A stretch of 64,000 nt of DNA from an uncultured Steroidobacter sp. GTDB lineage: Bacteria; Pseudomonadota; Gammaproteobacteria; Steroidobacterales; Steroidobacteraceae. Position 1 is the first letter of the stretch, and each line of letters opens with the position of its first letter. The position numbers and the translations under genes are program-made. The notes under the pieces were generated by a model that worked only from the letters and a program-made list of their open reading frames with translations, had not been told where the DNA came from and did not search any database. Of this stretch, positions 27,546 through 59,814 are shown piece after piece. The stretch is from positions 17,487 through 81,486 of the forward strand of contig CALFXI010000058.1 of NCBI GenBank assembly GCA_937958065.1. The letters run 5' to 3'.

Positions 27546-27569
27546 CGACGAAGATCCTCGCGGCGCTGC

Positions 27570-27986: not shown

Positions 27987-28018
27987 GACTGTGCTCTCGC
28001 GTAGGAATATCGAGCGGC

Positions 28019-29572
<1,554 letters not shown>

Positions 29573-29592: not shown

Positions 29593-29627
29593 TTAGCGCA
29601 ATGGGGATCCGGTTCGCTGGAGTCGCC

Positions 29628-33526: not shown

Positions 33527-33556
33527 CCGGATGGAGCAATGGAAATGGCGCGGTGT

Positions 33557-33576
33557 GCAGACGCCGCGTCTGCTTT
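33557..33576 (+). terminator. Hairpin plus short U-tract between TBDR and oxidase (weak terminator or stability element)
   Basis: GCAGACG-CCG-CGTCTGC-TTT. Confidence 0.45.
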
Positions 33577-33588
33577 GGAGAACAACAC

Positions 33589-35157: not shown

Positions 35158-35186
35158 CTCTCATACCTCGACAACAAGGAGAACCG

Positions 35187-37277: not shown

Positions 37278-37793
37278 ATGTCAGCCGAGGCTGCTCGCGC
37301 ATTGATTACCGGCTTGGTTGCCAGCCACGGCGTGAAACTGCGCCGCTTCCTGCTCCTGCGTACGCGCAATGCCGCCGACGTGCCCGATATGTTGCAGGAA
37401 GTGTATCTGCGGATGTTGCGCGTCCCGAACGTGGAATCGATCCGATCGCCGGAGGCTTATCTGTTCACGGTCGCGCAACACGTCGTTCAACAGCATTCGC
37501 TGCGACAGTCGGCGACACCGCCCTCGATCGAGCTGAGCGAAATGCTGAACTCCGCACGCGCGGTCCCCGATGTGGATCCAGTGCTCGAACTGGATGCACA
37601 ACAGTGTCTGGAACAACTGCAGTCCGAGCTGGATCGCCTGTCGCCCAAACTGCGCGCCACCTTCCTGCTGCATCGTCGAGACGGTCTGTCGCTCGATGAA
37701 ATCGCCGGGCGACTCGGCACGTCGCTGCCGATGGTGAAAAAGAACCTCATGCAAGCGCTGGTGCAATTGCGTCAGCGGCTGGAGCGAGGCTGA
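37278..37793 (+). CDS. ECF sigma factor (FecI-like)
   Basis: DMLQEVYLRML, AYLFTVAQH, LSPKLRATFLLHRRDGLSLDEIA; immediately upstream of a FecR-like gene. Confidence 0.9.
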   Translation: MSAEAARALITGLVASHGVKLRRFLLLRTRNAADVPDMLQEVYLRMLRVPNVESIRSPEAYLFTVAQHVVQQHSLRQSATPPSIELSEMLNSARAVPDVDPVLELDAQQCLEQLQSELDRLSPKLRATFLLHRRDGLSLDEIAGRLGTSLPMVKKNLMQALVQLRQRLERG

Positions 37794-38876: not shown

Positions 38877-38957
38877 CCGACGAGCCGTCGCACCTCAGAC
38901 GACGGCTGGAACGACAGATCGAGAACGAGCCGCGTGCGAGCGCGGCTGGGGGATGTC

Positions 38958-41900
38958 ATGCGAGTAAGCGTAGCAGCTGTTTGCCTGGCGCTGATGGGAC
39001 TGTCCGGCACGGCGGAGTCGCAGGCTGCGGCCAGGAAACAAACGGATATTCCGTCGCAGGGCCTCGGGCTGGCGCTGCAAAGCCTGGCCAGGGAGCGCAG
39101 CTTTCAGCTCGTCTACGTGTCCGAGGAGGTCGACACTCTGAACACGCAGGGTGCGGTCGGCGAGCTCACGCCCGAAGAAGCGCTGACGAAGCTGCTCGCG
39201 GGCACCGGCCTCACATTCAAGTATCTGAACGAACACACCGTCACGATTTTGCCCGTCGCGCCCCCGCCCCCCGCGCGCGCGAGGCCCATCAACGCAGAGC
39301 CCGGAGAACAACGCGTGCCACGCATCAGCAGACCTTGGATCGTGAAGAACGTTCGTCTGGCTTCGGCGGCTTCGGCCGTCATGTTTGGAGTTGCGGGCGG
39401 CCCCGCCGCCGCGCAATCCAGTGCCGCTCAACAAAACCTGGAGGAAGTCGTCGTCACGGGCATTCGCAGCAGCTTGCGCCAGGCAATGGAGATCAAGCGC
39501 GACTCGGATCAGATCGTCGACTCGATCGCTTCGGAAAGCCTGGGCAAGTTCCCCGATACAAACATCGCCGAATCCCTGCAGCGAATCACCGGCGTGTCCA
39601 TCGATCGCAGCGGCGGTGAAGGCCAAGGCGTCACGGTGCGCGGCTTTGGGCCGGAGTTCAACACGGTGCTGCTCAACGGTCGTCGACTCGCTTCGGACAC
39701 CGGCGCGCGCTCGTTCAACTTCGACGTGCTGCCCGCCGAGCTGATCTCCCGCGTCGATGTTTACAAGAGCGCAACGGCCCTGCTCCAGGAAGGCGGTATC
39801 GGTTCCGCGATCCTGCTGCATACACCGCGACCGCTGGAGCTCGGCGATTTCAAGAGCATCCTTTCCGCCAAAGCGCTGTATGAGGATCTGTCCGAGAACA
39901 CGACGCCCGAAGTGTTCGGCATGATCAGCGACACGTTCGCCGACGGACGCATCGGCCTGCTCGCCTCCGCTTCGTATCAAAGGCGCAAGAACCGCTCCGA
40001 ACGCATCCTCACCGACGGTTATCTCACCGCGCCTCGTGACAGCATGACATTGATCGCCGATGACCTGGCCGCGCAAGGCTATGCCGCCGACGATCAGTTC
40101 TTCATTCCGCAGAATCTGAACGTCAGCCCGGTCGATGAAGATCGCGAGCGAATCAACGTCAACGCTACGTTTCAATATCAGATCTCGGATCGCCTGCGCC
40201 TGACGGTCGACGGCATGTACGACCAGTTCAGTGTGTTCACCGAGGCGAACTCGCTCGGCTTCTTCGTCACGCCGTCCATCATCACGAATGCGCAGTTCGA
40301 CGAGCATCGAACCGCGACGAGCATCACGCAAACGATCGATGCCGCGATCGACTTCACCCGCTCCGAACGCGATCGCCCCACCGATATCTATGCCGGCGGT
40401 CTCAATCTCGCCTGGGACGTGAGCGACAGCGTCAATGTCACGCTCGACTCGTCGTGGTCTCGCGCCAGGTCCGGCGGCGCGGAAGGCACCAACGTGGCGG
40501 TCGTCGGCTTCCGCAAGGATATCTACACGCTTTCGTACGGACCCAACGGCATTCCCACGGTCACGGGCGTGCCGGCAGCGGACTACGTCGATCCGAGTCT
40601 GCCGGTGGCTCACTTCAATCTGCGCGGCACGGGCGGCGGTCCCCTCGGCGGCGGTGCGGACCTCGAAGACAGGATCCTCGAGCATCGCATCGAAGCGCAA
40701 TGGCAGCCCGAGCACGATGTGCTCAAGCGCGTCACGGTCGGGGGCTACTATTCGGAAGAGAAACAGCGCCGCGACACCCGGCTGTCCGATAACAACATCC
40801 TGTGCATGTACTGCGGCTACTTCGTCGACATCCCCGATGAGTTGATGCGGCCGTATAACGTCGGTTCCGGTTATCTCGGCGGTCGCGTGTCCGTGCCCTC
40901 AGCGTGGCAGGCCTTCGATATCGATCCGCTGCTCGCCTATCTCGAGTCTGCCGAAGCCGCCAGCGCGCGCGATGCTGCACAAGGCCTCCCACCTGGGAGC
41001 ACGCTGGCCGAACTGGCTGCGAGCAACGGCTTCGAAATCCATCAGCGACCGGACTCTTCGCGAGTCGAAGAAGAAGTCGCGGCGTTGTATGCGGATGCGA
41101 GCTTCGAGGGCACGCTCGCTCGAATGCCCTGGAATCTCACGGTCGGCGCTCGCTATGTGCGCACGAAGACCACCGCGTTCGGGATCTCTCAAGCGCTGCA
41201 GGATCTGGTGAACAGCGGCGACCCGACGCTTTACACGACCGTGCTGGGCGATCCGGTCACCGTCAGCCAGACCAACCAGTACAACGATTTTCTGCCGAGC
41301 CTGAGCTTCCGTTTGAACGTGACCGACGACGTGGTGTTGCGCTTTGCCGCTTCCAAGACGCTCACTCGTCCACCGCTCGGCGCCTTGTCACCGCGCCTCG
41401 TGATCGGCACGACGCGACCCGGCAATCTGCAGGCCTCCAGCGGCAATCCGGATCTGAAGCCGTTCGAATCCCGGAACGCCGATCTGTCGGCCGAGTGGTA
41501 CTACCAGGAGAATGGTTTCATCACCGTCGGCGTGTTCTACAAGGAGGTCGAGAACTTTCTGGTGAACACCGTCGAGAATCGCGCCCTGCCCATTGCCGAC
41601 TCGGACGATCTGTTCGCCGGCTATCCGGTGTTCGAGGTGAGCCTGCTCGACAATCTCGAGAGCGCCACGGTCAAGGGCGTGGAAATCGGCGTCCAGCACA
41701 GTTTCGACTACCTGCCCGGCGTCTGGAGAGGCTTCGGCGTGGGCGCGAACGCGACGCTGGTCGACAGCGGCGCCGAATTGAACGTGGATGACGTCTCGCA
41801 GACCTTCGCGCTCGAAGGCCTGGGCGACTCCTATAACGTCGTCGGCTTCTACGAGAACGGTCCGCTGGAAGTGCGCGTTGCCTGGAACCGCCGCGAGCGT

Positions 41901-42128
41901 TTCCTGCGGACCGCAGTCGGCTTTGGGGGCGAGCCCACCTTCGTCGAGCCGTATCAACAGATCGATGCGCGCGCCAGCTTCGCGATTTCGGATCACTTCT
42001 CGGTGTTCGCCGAAGGCGTGAACCTCGGCAACGAAATCCAGCATCGCGTCGGTCGTTACCGCAACCAGATCCTGCTGCTCGAAGAAACCGGACGCCGCTA
42101 CACGATCGGCGTCCGCGCCGAATTCTGA
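38958..42128 (+). CDS. TonB-dependent transducer/receptor with N-terminal STN signalling domain
   Basis: DIPSQGLGLALQSLA...EEALTKLLAGTGL (STN); GKFPDTNIAESLQRITGVSI (glycan-type Xanthomonas/Caulobacter TBDR pattern); ends GVRAEF. Confidence 0.92.
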   Translation: MRVSVAAVCLALMGLSGTAESQAAARKQTDIPSQGLGLALQSLARERSFQLVYVSEEVDTLNTQGAVGELTPEEALTKLLAGTGLTFKYLNEHTVTILPVAPPPPARARPINAEPGEQRVPRISRPWIVKNVRLASAASAVMFGVAGGPAAAQSSAAQQNLEEVVVTGIRSSLRQAMEIKRDSDQIVDSIASESLGKFPDTNIAESLQRITGVSIDRSGGEGQGVTVRGFGPEFNTVLLNGRRLASDTGARSFNFDVLPAELISRVDVYKSATALLQEGGIGSAILLHTPRPLELGDFKSILSAKALYEDLSENTTPEVFGMISDTFADGRIGLLASASYQRRKNRSERILTDGYLTAPRDSMTLIADDLAAQGYAADDQFFIPQNLNVSPVDEDRERINVNATFQYQISDRLRLTVDGMYDQFSVFTEANSLGFFVTPSIITNAQFDEHRTATSITQTIDAAIDFTRSERDRPTDIYAGGLNLAWDVSDSVNVTLDSSWSRARSGGAEGTNVAVVGFRKDIYTLSYGPNGIPTVTGVPAADYVDPSLPVAHFNLRGTGGGPLGGGADLEDRILEHRIEAQWQPEHDVLKRVTVGGYYSEEKQRRDTRLSDNNILCMYCGYFVDIPDELMRPYNVGSGYLGGRVSVPSAWQAFDIDPLLAYLESAEAASARDAAQGLPPGSTLAELAASNGFEIHQRPDSSRVEEEVAALYADASFEGTLARMPWNLTVGARYVRTKTTAFGISQALQDLVNSGDPTLYTTVLGDPVTVSQTNQYNDFLPSLSFRLNVTDDVVLRFAASKTLTRPPLGALSPRLVIGTTRPGNLQASSGNPDLKPFESRNADLSAEWYYQENGFITVGVFYKEVENFLVNTVENRALPIADSDDLFAGYPVFEVSLLDNLESATVKGVEIGVQHSFDYLPGVWRGFGVGANATLVDSGAELNVDDVSQTFALEGLGDSYNVVGFYENGPLEVRVAWNRRERFLRTAVGFGGEPTFVEPYQQIDARASFAISDHFSVFAEGVNLGNEIQHRVGRYRNQILLLEETGRRYTIGVRAEF

Positions 42129-43058: not shown

Positions 43059-43484
43059 TCATTTCGCGAACAACTGCCCGATATCCTTGAACGCCTTGAA
43101 TTCCAGCGCGTTGCCGCACGGATCCAGCAGGAACATCGTGGCCTGTTCGCCGGTTTGGCCTGGAAAGCGGATGTGCGGCTCGATCACGAAGTCGATGCCG
43201 AAGGACCGCAATCGATCGGCCAGCGCCTGCCACTGATCCCAGCCGAGCACGACGCCGAAGTGCGGCACCGGCACATCGTGACCGTCGACGGGATTTGTAT
43301 GCGCGCGCTCCTGCGACGGCGTCTTCGGATGCTCGTGAATCACCAGCTGATGACCGAAGAAGTTGAAATCGACCCATTGGGTGCTCGAACGGCCTTCGGC
43401 CAGGCCGAACACTTCGCCATAGAAGCGGCGCGCCGCGGGCAGATCGTGAACGGGAATGGCCAGGTGAAACGGTGCCAGACTCAT
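43059..43484 (-). CDS. VOC/glyoxalase family protein
   Basis: [47 protein letters not shown]. Confidence 0.9.
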
Positions 43485-43613: not shown

Positions 43614-44954
43614 ATGAAGTTTGTCCTCACCTGCCTGACGACCCTGTCGCTGCTCGCCGCCGCCACGCACGCGGCCAGCGCCGACGAATGGCAATCGTTG
43701 TTCGACGGCACCTCGCTGAACGGCTGGCACCTGATCAACGGCTCGGCGAAATACGAAGTGGTCGACGGCGCCATCGTCGGCACGACGCAGGCGGGCTCGC
43801 CCAACAGTTTTCTCGCGACCGAGCGGCGCTTCGACGATTTCATCCTGGAATTCGAGGTCAAACAAACGGTCGGGCCGAGCAACAGCGGCGTGCAGTTCCG
43901 CAGCCAGAGCAACCCGGAAGTGATGCAAGGCCGCGTGCGTGGCCCGCAGATGGACCTGGATCCGTCCGAGCGCCAGTGGACCGGCGGGCTGTACGATGAA
44001 GCCGTGAGCGGCTGGTGGTATCCGGGCACGCTCAATCCCCAGCCCGGGCTGTACAGATTCGACGAATGGAATCACATCCGCATCGAGGCCGTCGGCCCGT
44101 CGCTGCGCACCTGGGTCAATGGCCAGCTGTCGGCGTACGTGCTCGATGCGACCTATAAAGAAGGTTTCATCGCGCTGCAGGTTCATTCCATCGACAAGCC
44201 CGACGAAGCCGGCCGCAAGATTCACTGGCGCAAGCTGCGCATCAAGGAACATCCGGTCGCCTCGCCCGCCGCCGCGACCATCTTCGTTCGTAACAACCTG
44301 CCCAACGATCTGAGCGAGGTCGAACGCAGGCAGGGCTGGCAGCTGCTCTGGGACGGCAGCTCCATGAGCGGCTGGCGCAGCGCCAGGCGCGACGCCCCGC
44401 CCACGCATGGCTGGCGGATCAAGGACGGAGAGCTGATCGTCACCGGCAGCGGTGGCGGCGACATCGTCACCCGGCAGACATTCCAGGCATTCGAGCTGCA
44501 GCTGGACTTCAAGCTCACGCCGGGCGCGAACAGCGGCATCAAATATTACGTGGCCGACTATGGCACGGACAGCGCGGTGGGCCTGGAATATCAGCTGCTC
44601 GATGACGAACGTCACGGCGATGCGAAGCAAGGCAAGGATGGCAATCGCACGCTCGCATCGCTGTACGATATCCAGCCGCGCGAAAGGCTGATGTCCAATC
44701 TCGGGATCGCGCCGAAAGTCGGCGAATGGCAGCATGCACGCATCGTCGCAAGGCCGGACGGCACCGTCGAGCACTGGCTCAACGGCGTGAAGGTGCTGAG
44801 CTATCAGCGCGGCTCGCAGGATTTCCAGCGCCGGGTCGCCGACAGCAAGTTCAAGGACATCGCCGGCTTCGGCCAGCTGGAACGAGGCCGGATTCTGCTG
44901 CAGGATCACGGCGACGAGGTCCGTTTCCGCAGCATCAAAATCCGCACGCTTTAG
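43614..44954 (+). CDS. Tandem DUF1080 (3-keto-disaccharide hydrolase/hydratase-like) secreted protein
   Basis: Two repeats of W..LFDG.SL.GW / NSG / EWNH.RI or EWQHARI / G.IALQ.H or GRILLQDHG. Confidence 0.9.
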   Translation: MKFVLTCLTTLSLLAAATHAASADEWQSLFDGTSLNGWHLINGSAKYEVVDGAIVGTTQAGSPNSFLATERRFDDFILEFEVKQTVGPSNSGVQFRSQSNPEVMQGRVRGPQMDLDPSERQWTGGLYDEAVSGWWYPGTLNPQPGLYRFDEWNHIRIEAVGPSLRTWVNGQLSAYVLDATYKEGFIALQVHSIDKPDEAGRKIHWRKLRIKEHPVASPAAATIFVRNNLPNDLSEVERRQGWQLLWDGSSMSGWRSARRDAPPTHGWRIKDGELIVTGSGGGDIVTRQTFQAFELQLDFKLTPGANSGIKYYVADYGTDSAVGLEYQLLDDERHGDAKQGKDGNRTLASLYDIQPRERLMSNLGIAPKVGEWQHARIVARPDGTVEHWLNGVKVLSYQRGSQDFQRRVADSKFKDIAGFGQLERGRILLQDHGDEVRFRSIKIRTL

Positions 44955-44963
44955 GAACGAGCG

Positions 44964-46112
44964 ATGAGCAACACCGATCGACGCACTTTTCTGCAATCCG
45001 CCGGCCTGGCAGGGATCGCTTCCTCCATGTCATCGACCGCGCTCGCGCAGAGCACGCCCGCGCGCGAAAAAGCAAAGACCGAGCCGCCCGCGAGCAAACA
45101 TTCCATTCGCTTCGGCGTGATCGGCCTCGATCATGCGCACATTTACAGCATGACCGCCGCCGTGCAACGAGGCGGTGGCCAGCTGGTGGCCGTTTACGGC
45201 TCGGACCCGAAACAGATCGCCGATTTTCGCGCGAAGTTCGGCGACGTGAAGGTCGCACGCAGCGAACACGAGATCATCGAGGACAAGTCCATTCAGCTGA
45301 TTGCCGGTGCGCCCATTCCCGATCAGCGCGCACCGCTCGGCATTCGCGCCATGCGAGCGGGCAAGGATTACCTGGCGGACAAGCCCGGCATCGTCACGCT
45401 GGAACAGCTCGCCGAGGTACGCCGGACGATCGAGGCAACCGGTCGAAAATTCGCGATCATGTATTCGGAACGATTGGAAGTCCGCTCGGCCGTATATGCA
45501 GGCGAGCTGATTCGCCAGGGTGCGATCGGTCGCGTCATTCAGACCGTCAATCTCGCGCCTCATCGCGTGAATGCGCCGTCGCGCCCGGACTGGTTCTGGG
45601 ACAAGGCGCGCTACGGCGGCATCCTCACCGATATCGGCTCGCATCAGGCCGATCAGTTTCTGTACTACACGAACAGCACCCAGGCGCGCGTCGTCGCGGC
45701 CCAGACGGGCAACCTGGCGCATCCCAACCATCCGAAGTTCGAAGACTTCGGCGACATGATGGTGACCGGCAACGGCGGCACCGGCTACGTGCGAGTCGAT
45801 TGGTACACGCCGGACGGCTTGAGCACCTGGGGCGACGGGCGTTTGTTCATCCTGGGCACCGAGGGCTACATCGAGCTGCGCAAATACATCAACGTCGCAT
45901 CGGGGTTGTCGGGAGGCGATCACCTGTACATCGTCGATCGCAAACAGGCGCGCTACATCGATTGCAAGGACGTGGCCCTGCCGTTCGGGCCGCAATTCGT
46001 CACCGACATCGTCGAACGCACGCAGACGGCGCAGGACCAGAAACAGGCGCTGCTGGCCGCCGAGCTGGTGCTGACCGCGCAGAGGGACGCCACCCGCCCG
46101 ACCCTGAGCTGA
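44964..46112 (+). CDS. Tat-exported Gfo/Idh/MocA oxidoreductase
   Basis: DRRTFL; FGVIGLDHAH, DYLADKP, GGILTDIGSHQAD. Confidence 0.88.
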   Translation: MSNTDRRTFLQSAGLAGIASSMSSTALAQSTPAREKAKTEPPASKHSIRFGVIGLDHAHIYSMTAAVQRGGGQLVAVYGSDPKQIADFRAKFGDVKVARSEHEIIEDKSIQLIAGAPIPDQRAPLGIRAMRAGKDYLADKPGIVTLEQLAEVRRTIEATGRKFAIMYSERLEVRSAVYAGELIRQGAIGRVIQTVNLAPHRVNAPSRPDWFWDKARYGGILTDIGSHQADQFLYYTNSTQARVVAAQTGNLAHPNHPKFEDFGDMMVTGNGGTGYVRVDWYTPDGLSTWGDGRLFILGTEGYIELRKYINVASGLSGGDHLYIVDRKQARYIDCKDVALPFGPQFVTDIVERTQTAQDQKQALLAAELVLTAQRDATRPTLS

Positions 46113-46116
46113 AAAT

Positions 46117-46194
46117 TGGCCTGACCACGTTAGCGATCCCAACACCGCATTGACAGGCTCGCCCGGCTGATCTAACAATCCACTGGTCAGGCCA
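46117..46194 (+). promoter_or_regulatory. sigma70-like promoter bracketed by two inverted FadR/GntR-type operators
   Basis: TGGCCTGACCA (46117-46127) and its reverse complement TGGTCAGGCCA (46184-46194) flank TTGACA-N17-TAACAA (46150-46178). Confidence 0.65.
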
Positions 46195-46351
46195 CTTTCC
46201 CATGCCGAAGGTGGCCCGGTCAGGGGGAATCTCCGGTCAGCGATGTCGCTTCGAAAGGCGGCACGGCCGCGCTCGCCCGCGGCAAACCACAACTTCCTCC
46301 TGAAGCGATTCGGCCCTGCACGTCGTGGTCCACGAACTGGGAGGAGCTGAA

Positions 46352-49189
46352 ATGGCAAGCATCACGTCGGCCAGCGCGGGAGTGTTGTCTTTGTGTCTGA
46401 GCACCGCCGCCTTCGCCCAGCAAACATCCGGCGAAGGTCAGCTCGAAGAAGTCGTCGTCACCGGCTTTCGCGAGAGTCTCGAAGTCTCGCTCGCGGCCAA
46501 GCGCGATTCGGTGAACTTCACCGATTCCATCTCCGCCGAGGATGTCGGCAAGCTGCCGGACAACAATCTCGCCGAAGCCCTGCAGCGGGTGCCTGGCGTG
46601 CAGATCTCCCGCACCAACGGCGAAGGCCAGCAGATCTCGCTGCGTGGCATGGGACCGAGCTTCGCTCGCGTCCTGCTCGATGGCATGCCGGTCTCGGCGG
46701 CGTCCGAGGGCAGCGTCGATCAGCAAGCACGCAATCGCGAGTTCGATTTCGATCTGCTGCCCTCGGAAATCTTCAGCATGCTGCAGGTTTCTAAAACACC
46801 GACGGCGAGCACCGTCGAAGGCGGCCTGGCAGGCACGGTAGATCTGCGCACGCCGCGCCCGTTCGACTACAACGGTTTCCAGGCGAGCTATCAGCTGCAA
46901 GCCATGTATCAGTCCTCGTCCGAGGAAGTCGATCCGCGCGGCAGCTTTCTCGTCAGCAAGAATTGGGATGGCAAGTTCGGCGCGCTGCTGAGCGTTTCCA
47001 TGTCGCAACGAACTTTCCGCACCGATGGCTGGAGCTCGCAAGGCTGGACATCGGGGCGCGTGCCGGGCAATCCAGCGACGCCGACCGACCTCTACCAGGC
47101 GGGTTTCGACTGGAACCTGCCGAGCGTCAGCGCCTCGAGCGCCAATCAGAGCCCCGACTTCGTCAATGAATCGGGCTTGACCAACGCACAGCTCGCCAAC
47201 ACGCAGTTGCCGCGGCTCGGGCGGCCCGAAGTGCAACTCGGCGATCGCGACCGCATCGGCGGCACGCTGGCCTTGCAATGGGCGCCGAGCGACCGGCTGC
47301 TGTTCAACCTGGATGTGATCTACGCCAAGCTGGAATCCGAGTTCGATCGTTACACCAACAATCTGCTGGTGAGAAACACCAACCTGCAAACCGCGGGACC
47401 GACCGGCTTCGGCTACATCACGCCCAGCAACTTCTCGATCGACGAGAACAACACGCTGACCCACGGCACGCTGCTCAACGCCAAATTCTGGTCGGAAAAT
47501 CGCCTGTTCGAACAGGAGTCCGACTTCAAGCACATCGGCCTGGGCGGCTCCTGGCAGATCACGGACAACATCGGCCTGGACGTGAAAGCGTCCAAGGCGG
47601 AATCCGACTTCCGCTGGCGCATGACCACCTACCTGTTCCTGTCGCGCCCGGGCACGGTCGACATCGACGTGCCCGGTAACGGCATTCCCGTCATCGCCCC
47701 GCAGCTCGACCTGACCGACGTCGGCAACTGGCAGTTCGACACCGTGCGCGTGCAGCCCCGCACCCGCGAGGAAGAAAATGAAAACCTCGCGCTCGATCTC
47801 AAATTCGGCGACGACGAACGGAACATTCGAGTCGGCGCGCTGGCCAACAAGTTCTTCCGCGAACGCCTCACCTACTCCTCGTCCGTCGGCGTGACGCAAG
47901 GCACCGCCCTGACACCCTTTGGCTATACCGGCGGCGCGAATCTCAACCAGTTCAACATCGCCAGCTTCGCCAGGGTGGTGCCAGTGAACTATGGCGAACA
48001 CTTCGACCGGCCGGCCGGCTACAGCCGCTGGATCGTGAGCGACCTCGATGCGTTCAGCCGGATGTTGAATCCGAACGCGCTGGACGCCGCCGCCAATCTG
48101 GATTTCCAGAATTCCGGCAGCTTCGAAGAGCAGAACCTGTCGGCCTACATCGAAGCGAACACAGCATTGGACCTGTGGGGCCGCACCCTGCGCGTCAACG
48201 CCGGCGTGCGCTACGTGCAGACCGAGCACGAGATGGCTGGCTTCATCCGCGTGCCCTCCACGCCGCCGGCGGCGAACAATCTGTTCGGTCTGCGCAAGCA
48301 AGACTACGGCCGCAACGTCATCGACGGCGATTATTCCGAAGTGCTGCCGTCGCTGAACCTCGCGTATGACATCGGCGACTCGGTGCTGGCTCGTTTCTCG
48401 CTGTCACGAGCGCTGACCCGACCCAACCCCGCGGACTTGCAGCCGTTCACTTCCATCAGCACCGCCGGCGTGGTCTCCCAGGGCAATCCGAACCTGGATC
48501 CCTACATTTCCGATCAACTCGACGGCGGCCTGGAATGGTACTTCTCCGAAGGCGCGGTGTTGGGCGGCAATCTGTTCTACAAGGAAATCACCGGCTTCGT
48601 GCAGCGGCGGAATATCCCGCAGCCGTTCCGCAACGCCGGCATCGCGCTCGATACCATCACCGATCCGACCATCCTCGCGCTGTTGCCGAATGGACTCGAC
48701 ACGATCCTGTTGTTCAACACGCCGGTGAACATCGAAGCGACCACGTATCTGAAGGGCCTGGAACTGCTGTACCAGCAACGTCTCGACAACCTGCTGGAAG
48801 GCTCGGGCGTCACGCTGAACTACACGCGCCTGGATTCCGGCAGCCAGGTCGTCCTCGGCCTGGCGAAGCACAACCTCAACGCCGTTGCGTACTATGAACA
48901 GGAGCGCTTCGCCCTGCGCCTGAGTTACAACTATCGCTACGACTACGTGGAATGCGAGAACAACTGCGGCTCGACCTCGCCGCAGACCGGCTTCCGGCTC
49001 CAGGCGGGTTATCTGGACTTCAACGGCAGCGTAAGCTTCACGGCGCTCGGTCAGGACCTGACGCTGAGCCTGGAAGTGCTCAATCTCATCGACGAGGAAG
49101 AGTATTCGTTCTACGGTTATGAGAACCGTGCGAATACATTGAACAAACCCGGCCGCCAGTTCATTCTGGGGATTCGCGGCCAGTTCTAG
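46352..49189 (+). CDS. TonB-dependent receptor (glycan-type)
   Basis: LEEVVVTGFR, DVGKLPDNNLAEALQRVPGVQI, ends ILGIRGQF; GGAGG RBS. Confidence 0.93.
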   Translation: MASITSASAGVLSLCLSTAAFAQQTSGEGQLEEVVVTGFRESLEVSLAAKRDSVNFTDSISAEDVGKLPDNNLAEALQRVPGVQISRTNGEGQQISLRGMGPSFARVLLDGMPVSAASEGSVDQQARNREFDFDLLPSEIFSMLQVSKTPTASTVEGGLAGTVDLRTPRPFDYNGFQASYQLQAMYQSSSEEVDPRGSFLVSKNWDGKFGALLSVSMSQRTFRTDGWSSQGWTSGRVPGNPATPTDLYQAGFDWNLPSVSASSANQSPDFVNESGLTNAQLANTQLPRLGRPEVQLGDRDRIGGTLALQWAPSDRLLFNLDVIYAKLESEFDRYTNNLLVRNTNLQTAGPTGFGYITPSNFSIDENNTLTHGTLLNAKFWSENRLFEQESDFKHIGLGGSWQITDNIGLDVKASKAESDFRWRMTTYLFLSRPGTVDIDVPGNGIPVIAPQLDLTDVGNWQFDTVRVQPRTREEENENLALDLKFGDDERNIRVGALANKFFRERLTYSSSVGVTQGTALTPFGYTGGANLNQFNIASFARVVPVNYGEHFDRPAGYSRWIVSDLDAFSRMLNPNALDAAANLDFQNSGSFEEQNLSAYIEANTALDLWGRTLRVNAGVRYVQTEHEMAGFIRVPSTPPAANNLFGLRKQDYGRNVIDGDYSEVLPSLNLAYDIGDSVLARFSLSRALTRPNPADLQPFTSISTAGVVSQGNPNLDPYISDQLDGGLEWYFSEGAVLGGNLFYKEITGFVQRRNIPQPFRNAGIALDTITDPTILALLPNGLDTILLFNTPVNIEATTYLKGLELLYQQRLDNLLEGSGVTLNYTRLDSGSQVVLGLAKHNLNAVAYYEQERFALRLSYNYRYDYVECENNCGSTSPQTGFRLQAGYLDFNGSVSFTALGQDLTLSLEVLNLIDEEEYSFYGYENRANTLNKPGRQFILGIRGQF

Positions 49190-49198
49190 GAAGATGAC

Positions 49199-50572
49199 AT
49201 GCGACCACGACACCCTGCGAGCTCTCTTTCCCGCCGGACCTTTGGCAAGACACTGATGGGGTTGTCGTTGCCGCTGATATTGCCCAGCCGCTTGCTGGGC
49301 GCCGATGCACCCAGCAATCGCATCCGGGTCGGGCAGATCGGCTGCGGCCGGATCGCGCGCGACCATGACATGCCCGGCGTGTTGAAGTCCGGGCTCGCCG
49401 ACATCGTCGCGGTTTGCGACGTCGATGCAAATCGCGCGGCCCAGGGCAAGACACGCGTCGAGGAGCTGTATCGCGAGATCAATGCGCCGCTGCCGACCGT
49501 CAGCGTGCACGCCGATTACCGCGAAATCCTGCAGCGTAAGGACATCGACGCTGTCGTGATCAGCACCCCGGATCATCAGCACGCCGAGCCGGCGCTGGCG
49601 GCGATATTGGCAGGCAAGGATGTTTATTTGCAGAAACCCTTCACGATGACCATCGCGGAAGGCAAGGTGCTGCTGGATGCAGTGGAACGCAGCAGGCGCA
49701 TCCTGCAGGTCGGCAGCCAGCAACGTTCGTGGCAGCAGTTCCGTCAGGCCGCCGAACTGGTCCGCTCCGGGCGCATCGGGCAGGTGCGCAGCGTCGAGAT
49801 CGGCTTGCCCATCGATCCCACCGCGCCAGACGATCCGGCGCAGCCGGTGCCGAAAGAGTTGGATTTCGATCGATGGATCGGACCGGCCGAGTTTGCTTAT
49901 TACACCGAGCAGCGCGTGCATCCGCGCTCGGGCTACTCGCGGCCCGGCTGGCTGCGTAATGAATCGTTCTGTCTCGGCATGATCACCGGCTGGGGCTCGC
50001 ATCATTACGACACCATGCATTGGGCGCTCGATCTGGAATCGAGCGGTCCCTCACGCGTCGAAGGCACCGCGGAGTTTCCGACAAACAAGATCTGGAACGT
50101 GCATGGCGCCTATGACGTGAAGCTCACCTATCCGGGCAACATCCGCGTGCATGTTTCCGACAAGAATCCGAATGGCCTGAAGTTCGTCGGCGACGACGGC
50201 TGGATCTGGGTCACCCGCGACGGCCAGGCCACCGCCAGCGATCCCAAATCCGGACAGACCCTGCCGCCGCTCGACGCAAGCGACAAACGCCTGCTCGATC
50301 CGAAGGGTTTGAAGGTCGAACTGCCTCGTAGCGACAGTCATCACAAGAACTGGCTGGAGAGCGTGCGCTCGCGCAAGGAGCCGCTCGCTCCCGCGCACAT
50401 CGCTCATCGCAGCGGCAGTGCGTGCATCGTCAGCTGGATCGCGATGAAGCTGCAGCGGCCGCTCACCTGGGATGTGAAATCCGAAAGCTTCCTGAACGAC
50501 GCCGAAGCCAACAAATGGCTGTCCCGTCCCGAGCGCGCCCCGTACGGCGTGACGCGATTGATCAAGAGCTGA
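49199..50572 (+). CDS. Tat-exported Gfo/Idh/MocA oxidoreductase
   Basis: SRRTF; IRVGQIGCG, VISTPDHQHA, DVYLQKP, QVGSQQRS, GMITGWGSHH.D. Confidence 0.9.
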   Translation: MRPRHPASSLSRRTFGKTLMGLSLPLILPSRLLGADAPSNRIRVGQIGCGRIARDHDMPGVLKSGLADIVAVCDVDANRAAQGKTRVEELYREINAPLPTVSVHADYREILQRKDIDAVVISTPDHQHAEPALAAILAGKDVYLQKPFTMTIAEGKVLLDAVERSRRILQVGSQQRSWQQFRQAAELVRSGRIGQVRSVEIGLPIDPTAPDDPAQPVPKELDFDRWIGPAEFAYYTEQRVHPRSGYSRPGWLRNESFCLGMITGWGSHHYDTMHWALDLESSGPSRVEGTAEFPTNKIWNVHGAYDVKLTYPGNIRVHVSDKNPNGLKFVGDDGWIWVTRDGQATASDPKSGQTLPPLDASDKRLLDPKGLKVELPRSDSHHKNWLESVRSRKEPLAPAHIAHRSGSACIVSWIAMKLQRPLTWDVKSESFLNDAEANKWLSRPERAPYGVTRLIKS

Positions 50573-50580
50573 GCGGCATC

Positions 50581-51933
50581 ATGCGAAAGTCCTTGCAGTC
50601 GCTGGTCGGCGCGACGCTGATGTTTGCTGCCGCCCTAACCTCCCACGCCGAAGGCATCACCGGGCCGGTGCGTCTGCTGACGCTCGACCCCGGCCATTTC
50701 CACGCCTCGCTGGTTCAGAAGTTCATGTACCAAGGCGTCGACCCGCAGGTGCACGTCTACGCCCCCAAAGGCGATGACGTGCTCGAGCACATGAAGCGCA
50801 TCGAAGGCTTCAACCGGCGAGCGGATCAGCCCACGAGCTGGCGGACCGAGCTCTACACCGGACCGGACTACCTGCAACGCATGCTCGCGGATCGCAGCGG
50901 CAATGTGGTCGTCATCTCGGGAAACAATGCACACAAGGCGCAATACATCCTGAGCTCCATCGAGACGGGGTTCAACGTGCTCGCCGACAAGCCGATGGCG
51001 ATCACGCCGCCCGACCTCGAGAAGCTCCAGCAGGCGTTCGCGCTCGCCGGGAAAAAAGGCACGCTGCTCTATGACATCATGACCGAGCGCTTCGAGATCA
51101 CTTCGATCCTGCAGCGCGAGCTGTCGCAGCGGCCGGAGCTGTTCGGCTCACTGCAGAAAGGCAGCGCCGCCGATCCCTCGATCCGCAAGGAAAGCGTGCA
51201 TCACTTCTCGAAAATCGTGGCCGGCTCGCCATTGAAGCGGCCGGAATGGTTCTTCGACGTGCGCCAGCAGGGCGAAGGGCTGGTGGATGTCACGACGCAT
51301 CTGGTGGACCTGGTGCAATGGCAGGCCTTCCCCGAGCAGGCCCTTCAGCCCGCGGACGCGAAAGTGCTGAGCGCGAAGCACAGCCGCACGCCCATCACGC
51401 TCGATCAGTTCAGCAAGGTCACCGGCGCGACAGCGTTCCCGGAATTCCTGAAATCGGACGTCCGGAACGGCGTGCTGAACGTCTACGCAAATGGCGAATT
51501 CACCTATCGGCTGCGCGACGTGCATGCACTGGTTTCGGTGAAGTGGGATTTCGAGGCACCGCCGGGCGGCGGCGATACGCACTTCTCGGTGATGCGCGGG
51601 ACCAAGGCCACGCTCATGATCGAGCAAGGCGCGGCTCAGCAGTTCAAGCCCGTCCTGTACATCGAAGGCACCCGGGACGAGGCGGCCGTGAAGAGCGCCA
51701 TCGCCTCTTTACAAGGCAAGTATCCCGGCGTGGGCGTACGCCGCGAAGGCGAGCGCTGGGCAGTCACCGTGCCGGAGAAATACAACGTCGGCCATGAAGC
51801 GCACTTCGCCCAGGTCACCGAGAACTTCCTGAAATACCTGCGCTCGGGCAAGCTGCCCGCATGGGAAGTGCCCAACATGCTGACCAAATATTCAACCATC
51901 ATGCAGGCGTATCAGCTCAGCCGCGCCCAGTGA
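50581..51933 (+). CDS. Secreted Gfo/Idh/MocA-related oxidoreductase
   Basis: Signal peptide; LDPGHFHASLVQK, NVLADKPM, YDIMTER, GEGLVDVTTHLVDL. Confidence 0.75.
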   Translation: MRKSLQSLVGATLMFAAALTSHAEGITGPVRLLTLDPGHFHASLVQKFMYQGVDPQVHVYAPKGDDVLEHMKRIEGFNRRADQPTSWRTELYTGPDYLQRMLADRSGNVVVISGNNAHKAQYILSSIETGFNVLADKPMAITPPDLEKLQQAFALAGKKGTLLYDIMTERFEITSILQRELSQRPELFGSLQKGSAADPSIRKESVHHFSKIVAGSPLKRPEWFFDVRQQGEGLVDVTTHLVDLVQWQAFPEQALQPADAKVLSAKHSRTPITLDQFSKVTGATAFPEFLKSDVRNGVLNVYANGEFTYRLRDVHALVSVKWDFEAPPGGGDTHFSVMRGTKATLMIEQGAAQQFKPVLYIEGTRDEAAVKSAIASLQGKYPGVGVRREGERWAVTVPEKYNVGHEAHFAQVTENFLKYLRSGKLPAWEVPNMLTKYSTIMQAYQLSRAQ

Positions 51934-51962
51934 CACTCGACCCACGATTCGAGCAAGGCGGA

Positions 51963-54488
51963 ATGCGATTTCATAGAACGGGCCTCGGCGCCCTTGCGGC
52001 CACCTGGCTGGCATTGATTCCTTTCTGGCAGGCCCAGGCACAAAGCGGCGACCGGCCCGGTGAGCAGCAAAAGCCACCGCCGGCGCACATCAAGATACCG
52101 CCCGCGCCTGCGCTGAAAGCCGAAGACGCACTGAAAACATTACGCGTCGCGCCCGGCTTTCGGGTGGAGCTCGTGGCGAGCGATCCGCTCCTGTTCGATC
52201 CTGTGGCCATCAGTATCGGCCCCGACGGGCGCATGTGGGTGGTCGCGATGCGTGCCTACATGCCGAATGCCGACGGTGTCGGCGAAGATGCGCCCATCGG
52301 AACGATCGCAACACTGGAAGATACGAACAACGACGGCCAGTACGACAAGCGTACCGAGTTCGCCGGTGGTCTGATCCTGCCGCGTGCGCTCGCTCTCGTG
52401 GGCGACGGCGTGCTGGTCGCCGAGCCGCCGAACCTCTGGTTCATGCGAGACACCGACAACGACGGCAAGGCCGACGACAAGCGACTGATCGCCAACGATT
52501 ACGGCAATCCCTCGAATCCGGAGCACAGCGCCAACGGCCTGCTCTGGGGCTTGGATAACTGGATCTACAGCGCCAACCACACCACGCGCTTTCGCTACCA
52601 GCGTGGCGAATGGAAGCGCGAACCGACGTCCTTTCGCGGTCAGTGGGGCATCGCGCAGGACGACTTCGGTCAGCTGTACTTCAACAACAACAGCGTCGCG
52701 CTCTACACGGACGCGCTGCCGGCCGAATATCTGCTCCGCAATCGCAGTCTGCCGAATCCCCGCGGCTCGAATGTGCAGCTGGCGCGCGCTGACGAAATAT
52801 CGGTGTGGCCGGCGCGCGTGACGACGGGCGTCAATCGCGGCTATCAAATCTTACGAGAAGACGGCACCCTGCCCGTCCTCACGGCGGCCAGCGGCCCTGC
52901 AATCTATCGCGGCTCGCTGTTCCCAGAGAGCTTCCGCGGTGATGCCTTCATCTGCGAGCCCGCCGGCAATATAGTCAAGCGGCTCGTGATCGAAGAGCGA
53001 GACGGCGTGCCTCGCGTACGCAACGCGTACGAGCGCACCGAATTCCTGGCCTCGACCGATGAACGATTCCGGCCGGTGAACCTCTACAACGGGCCCGACG
53101 GTTCGCTGTATGTGGTGGATATGTACCGCGGCATCATCCAGCACCGAATCTTCCTCACGACCTATCTGCGCAACCAGATCAAGGAACGCGGGCTCGAAGC
53201 GCCGCTCGGCATGGGGCGCGTCTATCGCATCGTGCCCGAAAATGCGCCGCGCCGTGCAGCTCCGAATCTGGCGAACGCCACACCATCGCAGCTCGTCAGC
53301 GCGCTCGATCATGAAGACGCGTGGGTGAGAGAAACTGCGCAGCGCCTGCTCGTCGAGCGTCAGGACGCAAGCGCCGTGTCCGCCCTGCGACGTTTGGTTA
53401 CGAACTCAGCTCGCCCAGCGACACGCGTTCATGCACTGTGGACGCTCGATGGCGTTGACGCAGTCGATTGGCCCACGGCCGCGGCCGGCCTGCGCGATGC
53501 CGAGCCACGCGTCGCCGCGACCGCCGCTCGGGTAGCCGAGAAGTTCCTGACGACGGATCCAGAGCGCACGATCAAGGCGCTGTTGGAACGTGCGCGATGG
53601 AATGAACCAGCAGTGGTTCGTCAGGTTGCCCTATCGCTGGGCAAAGCCGAGGGAAAGCACGCAGACACGGCCCTGCTGGAACTGGCCCGACAAGCGGGCG
53701 CGCAGCCGTACGTGGCGGACGCCATCGTCAGCAGCATCGGCGGCCGCGAACCGGCTTTTGTGAACTCCCTGATTGCGACCGAGAACAAGGCCGATATTTC
53801 CAACGCATCCACCGTGCTCGCCGTTGCCACAGCCACGGTGTTACAGACGGGCGAAGTTGATCAGAGCGAGGCACTGCTCAGTCGTCTCACTCAACCGAAG
53901 ACGAGCGCTTGGGTCCGCACAGCGTTGCTCGACGGCATCGATCGCCTCATCCCTCGCGCCGACGATGGTTCGAGACGCATGGCCTATCTGGCCGCCGAGC
54001 CCAAAGCGCTGCTCACCTATGCGTCGAGCGGTGCGGCCGATGCGCCTAGAGCCGCGCAGCTGGCGAAGTTCCTGCGCTGGCGTGGCTCCACGGTAGACAC
54101 GGCCGCGTCACTCGCGAAATTGACACCCGAACAACGCGCCCTCTATGACAAAGGACGCAGCGCGTTCGCCGTGTGCGCCGCCTGTCACCAGGAAGAAGGC
54201 CAGGGAATGAAGGGCCTCGCGCCCGCGCTCGCCGGATCTCAATGGGTCAACAGCTCGCCGCAAGCGGTCGTGCGCATCGTGCTCAATGGCAAGGTTGATC
54301 AACTCGCCATGCCCGGGCTCGGCGGCGCGCTCGATGATGAGGCGATCGCATCGATTCTCACGTACGTGCGACGCTCCTGGGGCAACGAAGCGAGCCCCAT
54401 CGACGCTCGCACCGTCAAATCCATCCGCGACGTCGTATCACATCGCGATGAGCCATGGAGCGACGAAGAGCTGCAACCGCTGCGCTGA
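51963..54488 (+). CDS. PVC-type heme-binding dehydrogenase-like protein (beta-propeller, HEAT repeats, monoheme cytochrome c)
   Basis: PGFRVELVASDP, GPDGRMWVV, NGLLWGLDNWIY, DERFRPV, GPDGSLYVVDMYRGII, HEAT repeats, CAACH, distal MPG. Confidence 0.87.
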   Translation: MRFHRTGLGALAATWLALIPFWQAQAQSGDRPGEQQKPPPAHIKIPPAPALKAEDALKTLRVAPGFRVELVASDPLLFDPVAISIGPDGRMWVVAMRAYMPNADGVGEDAPIGTIATLEDTNNDGQYDKRTEFAGGLILPRALALVGDGVLVAEPPNLWFMRDTDNDGKADDKRLIANDYGNPSNPEHSANGLLWGLDNWIYSANHTTRFRYQRGEWKREPTSFRGQWGIAQDDFGQLYFNNNSVALYTDALPAEYLLRNRSLPNPRGSNVQLARADEISVWPARVTTGVNRGYQILREDGTLPVLTAASGPAIYRGSLFPESFRGDAFICEPAGNIVKRLVIEERDGVPRVRNAYERTEFLASTDERFRPVNLYNGPDGSLYVVDMYRGIIQHRIFLTTYLRNQIKERGLEAPLGMGRVYRIVPENAPRRAAPNLANATPSQLVSALDHEDAWVRETAQRLLVERQDASAVSALRRLVTNSARPATRVHALWTLDGVDAVDWPTAAAGLRDAEPRVAATAARVAEKFLTTDPERTIKALLERARWNEPAVVRQVALSLGKAEGKHADTALLELARQAGAQPYVADAIVSSIGGREPAFVNSLIATENKADISNASTVLAVATATVLQTGEVDQSEALLSRLTQPKTSAWVRTALLDGIDRLIPRADDGSRRMAYLAAEPKALLTYASSGAADAPRAAQLAKFLRWRGSTVDTAASLAKLTPEQRALYDKGRSAFAVCAACHQEEGQGMKGLAPALAGSQWVNSSPQAVVRIVLNGKVDQLAMPGLGGALDDEAIASILTYVRRSWGNEASPIDARTVKSIRDVVSHRDEPWSDEELQPLR

Positions 54489-58947: not shown

Positions 58948-59814
58948 ATGGAAAGGAAGAACTCCCGCCGCAGATGGGCCATTGGACTGGGTTTGTTGAT
59001 CCTGGCCACCAGCGCGCACGCGCAAACGAATCCCTATCAGAAAGGGCCTGATCCAACCTCCGCTTCACTGAACGCAACCAGCGGTCCATTCACCGTCGCC
59101 ACCTCCAGCGTGTCCAGTCTCGTGGTCGGCTTCGGTGGCGGCACGATCTACTACCCGACGACCACCGGCACTTACGCCGTGCTCGCGATTTGCCCGGGCT
59201 TCACCGCGACTCAATCGTCCATCGCGTGGCTGGGGCGCCGGATCGCAACGCACGGCTTCGTCGTGATCACGATCGATACGAACACCACGCTGGACCAACC
59301 GCCGAGCCGCGCGACGCAGTTGATGGCCGCGTTGAACTACGTGACCAATTCGAGCAGCGCCACGGTTCGCAGCCGAGTCGATGCATCACGTCGCGGCGTT
59401 GCCGGCCACTCGATGGGCGGCGGCGGAACGCTGTATGCCGCACGTGACAATCCTTCGCTGAAAGCGGCGGTGCCCTTGACCGCATGGAGCACATTGAAAT
59501 CTTTCTCGAGCATGCAGGTGCCAACGCTCGTCATCGGCGCGGAGGCGGACAGCGTCGCCTCGGTGTCATCGCATTCCATTCCGTTCTACAACAGCCTGTC
59601 GAGCTCGCTCGACAAGGCGTATGCGGAGTTGAATGGGGCCTCGCACTTCGCGCCCAACACCACCAATACGCCGATCGGCCGTTATTCGGTAGCCTGGGTG
59701 AAACGCTTCATGGATAACGACACTCGCTATACGCCATTCCTGTGCGGCGCGCCTCATCAGAGCTACGCCACGTCGCTGGTGTTCTCGGACTATCGATCGA
59801 CCTGTCCGTACTGA
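58948..59814 (+). CDS. Secreted type I PET hydrolase/cutinase-like alpha/beta hydrolase
   Basis: [47 protein letters not shown] (Ser), LTAW, ADSVA (Asp), GASHFAPN (His), [13 protein letters not shown]...TCPY. Confidence 0.93.

Follow-up and report, generated by a model that had tools for sequence, protein, structure and literature searches.

A hydrolase-free gene block of Steroidobacter as a candidate periplasmic route for oxidative glycoside cleavage

Gene content and layout of the block

We analyzed a window (the whole stretch of DNA considered here, 64 kb long) from contig C58 of a soil Steroidobacter with a genome of 6.4 Mb, whose nearest named relative is S. cummioxidans (91% identity in one protein). 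Six co-directional genes on the + strand of this window, running from the first start codon at 43614 to the last stop codon at 54488, form a candidate locus for the cleavage of glycosides without a glycoside hydrolase (GH). The original prediction had placed a tandem DUF1080 protein, enzymes of the Gfo/Idh/MocA (GFO) type, a TonB-dependent receptor, and a heme-propeller protein in this interval, and all six genes were found as stated. It had also described three exported GFO enzymes; export was recovered for all three, but two of them use the twin-arginine translocation (Tat) pathway and one, here called OxC, uses the general secretion (Sec) pathway. A Pfam scan detected no GH domain in any of the six proteins, in agreement with the predicted absence of such enzymes from the block, but a GH27 gene lies 6.4 kb upstream. 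The features of the block were as follows.

43614-44954, + strand: tandem DUF1080 protein, 446 aa; PF06439 in two stretches (290 bits); Sec signal ending in AASA, followed by DEW
44964-46112, + strand: GFO_A, Gfo/Idh/MocA family, 382 aa; PF01408 and PF22725; Tat motif DRRTFLQ
46117-46194, no strand: promoter region with an inverted 11-mer pair (copies at 46117-46127 and 46184-46194; promoter at 46150-46179)
46325-49189, + strand: TonB-dependent receptor of the Xanthomonas/Caulobacter carbohydrate-type subfamily; TIGR01782, 624.6 bits (cut-off 310); Plug and beta-barrel Pfam domains
49199-50572, + strand: GFO_B, Gfo/Idh/MocA family, 457 aa; PF01408 and a PF19051 C-terminal domain; Tat motif SRRTFGK
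50581-51933, + strand: OxC, GFO fold, 450 aa; PF16490 ('Oxidoreduct_C'), 400.9 bits (cut-off 27); Sec signal
51963-54488, + strand: DUF7133-HEAT-cytochrome c protein, 841 aa; PF23500, 348.9 bits; one CAACH heme site; Sec signal

Two of these start codons differ from those of the open reading frames (ORFs) as listed. The ATG at 50581 is most likely the start of OxC rather than the listed start at 50422, because it yields a Sec signal and sits 8 bp past the previous stop codon; similarly, 51963 is most likely the start of the DUF7133-HEAT-cytochrome c gene rather than the longest-ORF start at 51861, because it yields a signal peptide and lies 29 bp past the preceding stop codon.

The genes are closely packed, with 9 bp between the DUF1080 and GFO_A genes and 9, 8, and 29 bp between successive genes of the receptor-to-cytochrome run. 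The 212-bp gap between GFO_A and the receptor holds the only sigma-70-like promoter that a promoter scan found in the region (46150-46179, 10/12 positions), and this promoter is bracketed by two exact, inverted copies of TGGCCTGACCA, which occur nowhere else in the 64-kb window. The inverted TGGCCTGACCA pair was also present in four related genomes (L006, L008, L015, and L016), where the DNA was only ~80-84% identical. The stretch 46117-46194 is probably an operator-controlled internal promoter for the receptor-to-cytochrome genes, and the promoter and the conserved pair together point to at least two transcription units, the second probably with its own repressor. No regulator gene for the TGGCCTGACCA pair was identified within the window, and a terminator scan returned sites no more numerous than the chance expectation. 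The GC content of the window was ~63%.

The genome has one gene each for the tandem DUF1080 protein, for GFO_A, for OxC, and for a full-length DUF7133 protein, and all four are located in this block. The same block is carried by the cultured bacteria Steroidobacter agaridevorans and Peristeroidobacter agariperforans (L015 and L016).

The tandem DUF1080 protein as a candidate lyase and hydratase

The mechanism of oxidative, non-Koshland glycoside cleavage was first described in 2024 in gut Bacteroidales (Nasseri et al., bioRxiv 10.1101/2024.03.25.586180). In that pathway, a Tat-exported GFO enzyme (AL3/BT3) uses an NAD that it holds tightly to oxidize C3 of glycosides; a triosephosphate isomerase (TIM) barrel protein (AL1/BT1) eliminates beta-linked aglycones and is needed only for beta anomers; and a DUF1080 protein (AL2/BT2) acts as the lyase for alpha anomers and as the glycal hydratase. 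Cofactor recycling was rate-limiting in vitro, and cytochromes were mentioned as possible in vivo re-oxidants; the authors left the in vivo recycling of the bound NAD open and predicted that other gene architectures exist.

The tandem DUF1080 protein of the block matched PDB entry 4jqt over its full length (3e-118), and its C-domain aligned with the BT2-type structures 8tda, 3osd, and 3nmb. The BT2 channel residues (Asn, Glu-x-Gln, Tyr, and Gln-x-His) were conserved in the C-domain within the motifs NSG, E-Y-Q, LYD, and LQDHG. Because the N-domain has Q-x-D or Q-x-E, as in 4jqt, instead of the E-x-Q motif kept in the C-domain, the two domains are, as judged from their motifs, not equivalent. 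We propose that the protein would serve as a 3-keto-glycoside lyase and a 2-hydroxy-3-keto-glycal hydratase.

Orthologues of this protein (47-54% identity) were present in 24 of 201 sampled Bacteroidota genomes. A GFO protein of ~450 aa was encoded directly beside the tandem DUF1080 gene in 19 of the 20 Bacteroidota loci fetched, and BT_2158_fam was its best NCBIfam match in all five cases checked, while a TIM barrel was found only occasionally within 9 kb. The pairing of a tandem DUF1080 protein with a GFO dehydrogenase and no TIM barrel is widespread.

These observations bear on the earlier view that the lyase was missing and that a different one was needed. No TIM-barrel lyase was visible in the block, as had been noted, and indeed no PF01261 match occurred anywhere on contig C58. 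The premise itself was weakened in three ways. First, a block without a TIM barrel does not by itself require another lyase, because DUF1080 is a 3-keto-alpha-glycoside lyase and hydratase according to Nasseri et al. Second, a tandem DUF1080 protein with a BT2158-class GFO protein and without a TIM barrel is the normal arrangement in the Bacteroidota loci (19/20). Third, the same genome encodes a Tat-exported TIM barrel in a separate cluster on contig C48, so that a periplasmic lyase could act in trans. This gene is one of four PF01261 genes in the genome, and the other three resemble hydroxypyruvate isomerase, an IolE-like protein, and L-rhamnose isomerase.

Three exported proteins of the GFO fold

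The best NCBIfam match of GFO_B was BT_2158_fam (glycoside 3-dehydrogenase), at 123.6 bits and far under the cut-off of 750. Its nearest solved relatives were the Nasseri-type dehydrogenases 8tdf and 8tdh (~1e-21), and the HMMER alignment with 8tdf covered only the N-terminal ~200 residues. A twin-arginine motif was present in 29 of 30 GFO_B orthologues. When AL3 residues were mapped onto GFO_B, with our own numbering offset on the 8tdf alignment and not with three-dimensional coordinates, the NAD-adjacent Gln161 was kept, and Arg192 and Trp195 were replaced by Leu and Asp, respectively; because of these replacements, the substrate of GFO_B is probably not a plain glucoside. We propose that GFO_B binds NAD(P) tightly and acts as a keto-forming dehydrogenase on C3 of glycosides. 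By its family score it falls in the same broad class as BT2158, as a distant paralogue and not an equivalog.

In GFO_A, GLDHAH stands in the place of GxGxxG, and the DKP and DxxxH motifs are present. Its PDB matches were 2p2s (6e-104) and 3u3x (4.5e-98), and sequence comparison assigns it to this unstudied class. GFO_A also matched OxC (BLASTP, 4e-8), with the motifs ADKP and RP(D/E)WF in common.

OxC, the only PF16490 protein of the genome, was closest to PARMER_00841 (PDB 4oo3; 5e-153, 54% identical residues, and a full-length structural match at Z 55.5), and the next structural neighbors of its model were GFO_A-class structures at Z ~32. An invariant DPGHFHA motif replaces the Gly-rich loop, and the Lys of DKP and the DxxxH motif are kept. 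Its conserved residues include H39, H41, K137, D236, and H240. Among 74 OxC orthologues, 67 had a hydrophobic leader, 37 a lipobox, and 4 an RR motif. A literature search found no function or publication for PF16490, Oxidoreduct_C, or 4OO3. Periplasmic NAD(P)-dependent enzymes are loaded with their cofactor in the cytoplasm and exported by Tat, which is established for glucose-fructose oxidoreductase and assumed for AL3/BT3, whereas OxC is exported by Sec; for this reason, we infer that OxC carries no nicotinamide cofactor and that the acid/base residues it has kept serve in a step without redox chemistry. It would then be an NAD-free partner of GFO_B, acting as a lyase, isomerase, or hydratase on a keto-sugar.

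Another way to explain three GFO-fold proteins in one block would be that one of them works alone as an NAD-dependent glycosidase (GH4/GH109/GH188 type), which performs oxidation, elimination, hydration, and reduction in a single active site, with the other genes being accessory. The GFO fold is also that of GH109 and GH188, the OxC model aligned with the GH188 sulfoquinovosidases 8qc2/8qc3 at Z 30.6, and GFO_B has the ~450-aa, Tat-exported architecture that is typical of exported NAD-holding GFO enzymes such as GH109. However, the GH188 score lies inside the range of ordinary GFO dehydrogenases (Z 28-32), the Pfam scan showed no GH109-specific domain, and the best family match of GFO_B was a dehydrogenase and not a glycosidase. 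The strict pairing with DUF1080 in Bacteroidota also argues for a division of labor, and we therefore regard a single-protein glycosidase as improbable.

The DUF7133-HEAT-cytochrome c protein

The last gene of the block encodes a protein that matched PF23500 (348.9 bits), TIGR02604 (209.1 bits; cut-off 122.2), and, around its CAACH site, PF13442/PF00034. A six-bladed propeller is followed in it by HEAT repeats and by a cytochrome c with a single heme site and an invariant Met783; R141, E187, H188, N191, R368, R370, H394, and R419 are among its conserved residues. The AlphaFold2 model reached a pLDDT of 92.1 and a pTM of 0.91. Foldseek retrieved only generic propellers from the PDB with this model. 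In VIA-align, the top 11 matches were all pyrroloquinoline quinone (PQQ) sugar dehydrogenases/AA12 enzymes (Z 21.6-25.2, 13-23% identity), the best being 3a9g (Z 25.2, root-mean-square deviation of 2.9 Å, 274 residues aligned), followed by 2ism (Z 24.0), 6i1q (Z 23.8), and then 7cgz, 6jt5, 2g8s, 3das, and 1qbi; unrelated six-bladed propellers scored Z ~20. When DUF7133 was compared by hhalign with a profile of the glucose/sorbosone dehydrogenase (GSDH) family built from sequences of the host's order, a match of 95.7% probability was obtained over 73 columns in the last blades, with the invariant DERFRPV falling on RIRxV, whose two arginines probably correspond to PQQ-carboxylate ligands of the Acinetobacter enzyme.

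Contig C21 of the same genome carries pqqC (340.5 bits; cut-off 240) and pqqE (520.4 bits; cut-off 381), seven GSDH genes are present in the genome, and by its gene content the organism makes PQQ. The likeness of the propeller, the hhalign match, and the pqq genes point to the DUF7133-HEAT-cytochrome c protein as a probable quinohemoprotein dehydrogenase. We know of no precedent for direct hydride transfer from a GFO-buried NADH to heme, and the protein more likely oxidizes a sugar species of the pathway than re-oxidizes GFO_B directly.

The DUF7133 family is very large, with 17,004 clusters at 50% identity (E ≤ 1e-3). Relatives of the DUF7133-cytochrome c protein were found in 1 of 400 other sampled Pseudomonadota genomes (E ≤ 1e-20) and in 4 of 151 Bacteroidota genomes (E ≤ 1e-80), and this rarity in Pseudomonadota suggests that the gene was acquired from another phylum. 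Base composition gave no signal of a recent transfer. A second, weak DUF7133 match (36.8 bits) occurred elsewhere in the same genome, in a 512-aa ORF (contig C27:133682-134437).

One published activity exists for the DUF7133-HEAT-cytochrome c architecture. Lac161_ORF7 was reported as a beta-galactosidase; the purified protein produced glucose when given lactose (Km 1.8 mM), and the cosmid complemented a Lac- strain of S. meliloti (Cheng et al. 2017, PMC5342196). Were the protein of the Steroidobacter block itself a glycosidase, the block would not be hydrolase-free, but we consider this very improbable. The fold is that of a PQQ dehydrogenase, and a hydrolase would have no need of a heme domain. 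Moreover, E. coli BL21(DE3) was the host from which Lac161_ORF7 was purified, and the Km of the protein is near that of LacZ, which would be compatible with LacZ carry-over. A cofactor-dependent oxidation in the periplasm, after which ketolactose is cleaved, would fit the data at least as well. Either contamination or oxidation followed by cleavage seems a more likely source of the reported activity than true hydrolysis.

Linkage of the genes across phyla and within the genus

Loci anchored on OxC orthologues (n = 80, 52-67% identity) came from Steroidobacteraceae, Verrucomicrobiota, Gemmatimonadota, Sumerlaeota, Kiritimatiellia, Lentisphaerota, Acidobacteriota, Planctomycetota, KSB1, and many Bacteroidota. 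Among the 76 loci with enough upstream sequence, 40 had a GFO_B orthologue directly upstream of OxC on the same strand; 38 of these orthologues scored at least 386 bits, and the ORFs of the other two were cut by contig ends. The pairing of a BT2158-class GFO protein with PF16490 is conserved in at least eight phyla. In six loci from Cytophagales, the next gene after OxC was GFO_A, and in a Sphingobacteriaceae metagenome-assembled genome (L048) a DUF7133-cytochrome c gene followed OxC after ~20 bp. Other recurrent neighbors of OxC were genes for SusC/SusD, UxuA, short-chain dehydrogenases/reductases (SDR), major facilitator superfamily (MFS) transporters, LacI, and aldo-keto reductases (AKR).

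Loci anchored on the DUF7133-cytochrome c gene (n = 80, from metagenomes; the closest orthologues had 51-59% identity) were more varied, and no orthologous neighbor cluster recurred in more than seven of them. At the level of families, which were scanned with iterated hidden Markov models (HMMs), DUF1080 was the most frequent Pfam family among the 102 flanking ORFs (7), followed by SDR and sulfatase (4 each) and GFO and AP_endonuc_2 (3 each). The closest DUF7133-cytochrome c orthologues adjoined an orthologous tandem DUF1080 gene at two loci (L112 and L114) and, at a third (L124), a GFO_A orthologue, a sugar MFS transporter gene, and another GFO gene. Metagenome contig Ga0172373_10003007 (L142:2856-6857) has one ORF of 1334 aa in which DUF1080 is joined to a GDSL/SGNH esterase domain, to DUF7133, and to cytochrome c. 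Thus, from the OxC-, DUF1080-, and DUF7133-anchored loci, each of the five enzyme genes is tied to another by an independent adjacency or fusion elsewhere. A different kind of fusion, of DUF1080 with an M60-like (enhancin) peptidase, was seen on the - strand at L187:7142-9886, beside a DUF7133-cytochrome c gene.

Within the genus, the block was complete in genomes G002 and G011, and the tandem DUF1080, GFO_B, and OxC genes were kept in G002, G010, G011, G013, and G022. None of our conclusions draws on the unpublished genome G018.

The neighbors of OxC also bear on an alternative in which the block oxidizes or rearranges free monosaccharides, anhydro-sugars, or cyclitols. The GFO enzymes would then interconvert sugars and keto-sugars in the manner of the aldose-aldose oxidoreductase of Caulobacter or of levoglucosan dehydrogenase, DUF1080 would be only a hydratase or isomerase, and the quinohemoprotein would make lactones from aldoses. 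In Bacteroidota, the GFO_B-OxC pair indeed lies near UxuA, SDR, AKR, and MFS genes of sugar-acid metabolism; aldose-aldose oxidoreductase (5a02) and 1,5-anhydro-D-fructose reductase are among the best characterized proteins related to GFO_A; the propeller resembles aldose dehydrogenases; and GFO_B lacks the glucoside-binding Arg and Trp of AL3. However, the TonB-dependent receptor is typical of oligosaccharide and not of monosaccharide uptake, SusC/SusD genes adjoin OxC in Prolixibacteraceae, and the DUF1080 C-domain keeps the motifs of BT2-type sequences; Nasseri et al. located active-site residues in BT2 and showed that this protein eliminates aglycones. We consider metabolism of free sugars unlikely as the role of the block.

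Proposed pathway and its weighing

On the basis of the observed domain content, export signals, operon-like layout, conservation, and cross-phylum linkage, we read the block, with a probability of roughly 0.55, as a candidate periplasmic system for hydrolase-independent glycoside cleavage by oxidation, elimination, and hydration, and as a TIM-barrel-free variant of the BT2156-2160/AL1-5 pathway. The periplasmic 3-keto-glycoside pathway of the original prediction therefore survives as the best fit to the DUF1080 motifs, the class of GFO_B, and the export of the proteins, although its premise of a missing lyase is weakened.

We propose the following scheme for the substrate and its site of oxidation, for the functions of GFO_A and OxC, and for the involvement of PQQ. 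The TonB-dependent receptor would import an oligosaccharide or glycoside, and GFO_B, exported by Tat with pre-bound NAD(P), would oxidize a ring hydroxyl, most likely that at C3. The tandem DUF1080 protein would eliminate the aglycone and hydrate the resulting glycal, and its two domains may split these tasks or the anomers between them. Re-reduction of the keto-sugar by GFO_A, GFO_B, or both would regenerate the bound cofactor. OxC, Sec-exported and probably cofactor-free, may act on the GFO_B product as an extra lyase or isomerase. Finally, the DUF7133-HEAT-cytochrome c protein, as a PQQ-type quinohemoprotein, would oxidize one of the pathway's sugars or keto-sugars, with the electrons going to respiration. 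A precedent for an oxidation step linked to a cytochrome exists in Caulobacter, whose LacABC dehydrogenase is of this kind and has been tied to DUF1080 (Price et al. 2022, PMC9007349).

The most notable elements of this scheme are the uncharacterized GFO_B-PF16490 pairing and the recurrent association of DUF1080 with the heme propeller. The joint proposal that the DUF7133-HEAT-cytochrome c protein is a PQQ quinohemoprotein that oxidizes glycosides or the keto-sugars made from them and wires glycoside breakdown to respiration, and that PF16490 descends from a GFO dehydrogenase, is Sec-exported and cofactor-free, and serves a Tat-exported glycoside dehydrogenase as its lyase or isomerase, is tentative, and we hold it to be rather doubtful as a whole.

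Several points weigh against the pathway as proposed, which is drawn from comparisons of sequence, model, and gene context. GFO_B is, by its low BT_2158_fam score (123.6 versus 750 bits) and the replacement of the sugar-binding Arg192 and Trp195 of AL3, not an orthologue of BT2158, and its substrate and even its position of oxidation may therefore differ. OxC keeps the Lys/Asp/His set of GFO enzymes and could be a redox enzyme. DUF7133 gave no match to the Pfam GSDH family (PF07995) even at E ≤ 10, and a DUF7133 domain profile searched against PDB sequences found no solved PQQ enzyme. DUF1080 occurred at 11 of the 80 DUF7133-anchored loci (within 3 kb at 10 of them), which is a real but minority association. 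Lastly, the block is of modular build: the receptor is missing from the otherwise colinear block of G010 and G022, the latter also lacking GFO_A, and most of the DUF7133 gene is gone from G013, so that the other genes can do without the cytochrome protein. The electron-draining oxidation step that had been suggested earlier is supported indirectly, by a PQQ-dehydrogenase-like propeller that recurs beside or fused to DUF1080, but it has to be set against the loss in G013.

Such modularity would also be expected if the block were a chance juxtaposition in a carbohydrate-scavenging island of two or three independent modules, drawn from tandem DUF1080-GFO_A, receptor-GFO_B-OxC, and DUF7133-cytochrome c. 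The internal promoter that splits the block and the lack of any orthologous DUF7133-cytochrome c neighbor in more than seven of 80 loci fit this explanation as well. However, every protein of the block except the TonB-dependent receptor is linked to another by adjacency or fusion in another phylum, the gaps inside each unit are only 8-29 bp, and the tandem DUF1080, OxC, GFO_A, and full-length DUF7133 genes are single-copy and all at the block. We accordingly give chance assembly little credence.

The oxidation-elimination-hydration pathway would bring the locus to bear on both points left by Nasseri et al., the recycling of NAD and the existence of other architectures. If it is true, two very large families without known function would gain roles in oxidative glycoside cleavage, and annotation based only on carbohydrate-active enzymes (CAZymes) would underestimate the glycan-degradation potential of soil bacteria.

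Surroundings of the block

The region upstream of the block contains the following features.

35808-37181, + strand: GH27 (Melibiase_2); PF16499 (2e-29) and PF17801 (3e-12); the nearest classical glycosidase, 6.4 kb upstream
37278-37793, + strand: extracytoplasmic function (ECF) sigma factor (Pfam)
37797-38876, + strand: FecR (Pfam)
38934-42128, + strand: STN-domain TonB receptor (Pfam)

The ECF sigma factor, FecR, and STN-domain receptor form a trio of the cell-surface signaling type, which may regulate the region. A TonB receptor gene is likewise present upstream of the block at L015 and L016. Between the trio and the block, or elsewhere upstream, there are also a DUF3750 gene and a glyoxalase-fold gene of divergent orientation (43062-43484).

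Farther from the block, the window holds Calvin-cycle genes on the - strand (25555-29488), comprising those for the RuBisCO large subunit (28019-29488), a CbbX-like AAA protein (26622-27545), and fructose-1,6-bisphosphatase (25555-26625), with an adjoining divergent LysR gene (29601-30581, + strand). A TonB receptor gene (30938-33526) is followed by genes for a flavin amine-oxidase-like protein and a RidA/L-PSP-domain protein (32320-35157 and 33915-35696; the ORFs overlap), which possibly form a unit for amine or amino-acid oxidation. On the other side of the block, 58948-59814 encodes a PETase/cutinase-like alpha/beta hydrolase (PF12740, 4e-119).

A second DUF1080 cluster and comparison with known systems

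A search with Pfam HMMs recovered two further DUF1080 genes on contig C48, which a census by single-sequence phmmer had missed. They belong to a canonical cluster with the following content.

C48 (L095:2633-10659), - strand: GMC oxidoreductase, LacI, MFS transporter, DUF1080 (signal peptide), Tat-exported PF01261 TIM barrel, cytoplasmic GFO, DUF1080 (signal peptide)

As judged from its genes, this cluster has the Caulobacter-type (lac-like) arrangement. It is the site of a GMC oxidoreductase in the genome that is separate from the block, in whose proteins the Pfam scan found no GMC domain.

The closest described counterparts of the block are BT2156-BT2160 of Bacteroides thetaiotaomicron and AL1-AL5 of Alistipes (Liu et al. 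2021, PMC8121099; Nasseri et al.), both of which have a Tat-exported GFO enzyme and an exported DUF1080 protein. These systems and the Steroidobacter block are alike in being periplasmic and in having no Koshland glycosidase. In contrast to them, the block has no TIM-barrel lyase, cytoplasmic GFO protein, or DUF6377 regulator; its DUF1080 protein is of the tandem two-domain, 4jqt type; and it has GFO_A, PF16490, a proteobacterial TonB receptor, and the heme-propeller protein in addition.

The LacABC-type (glucoside 3-dehydrogenase) systems of Caulobacter crescentus and Agrobacterium (PMC9007349) couple periplasmic glycoside oxidation to cytochrome c, use DUF1080 afterwards, and, as here, reside in proteobacterial hosts that use TonB receptors. 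Their dehydrogenase, however, is a flavin adenine dinucleotide (FAD)-dependent GMC enzyme with a separate cytochrome subunit, whereas the block offers NAD-type GFO candidates and a propeller-cytochrome fusion.

The six-bladed propeller is common to DUF7133 and to the PQQ sugar dehydrogenases/AA12 enzymes, including 3a9g, 2ism, E. coli Asd (2g8s), the soluble glucose dehydrogenase of A. calcoaceticus (1qbi), Trichoderma AA12 (6i1q), and the pyranose dehydrogenase of Coprinopsis (6jt5), but the DUF7133 protein has HEAT repeats between its propeller and a class I cytochrome c. The fungal pyranose dehydrogenase likewise has a fused cytochrome domain. The full architecture is the same as that of the PVC-type heme-binding CxxCH proteins (TIGR02604/TIGR02603; DUF7133), among them Lac161_ORF7 (PMC5342196), and what sets the present copy apart from the others is that it is gammaproteobacterial and lies inside a DUF1080/GFO operon.

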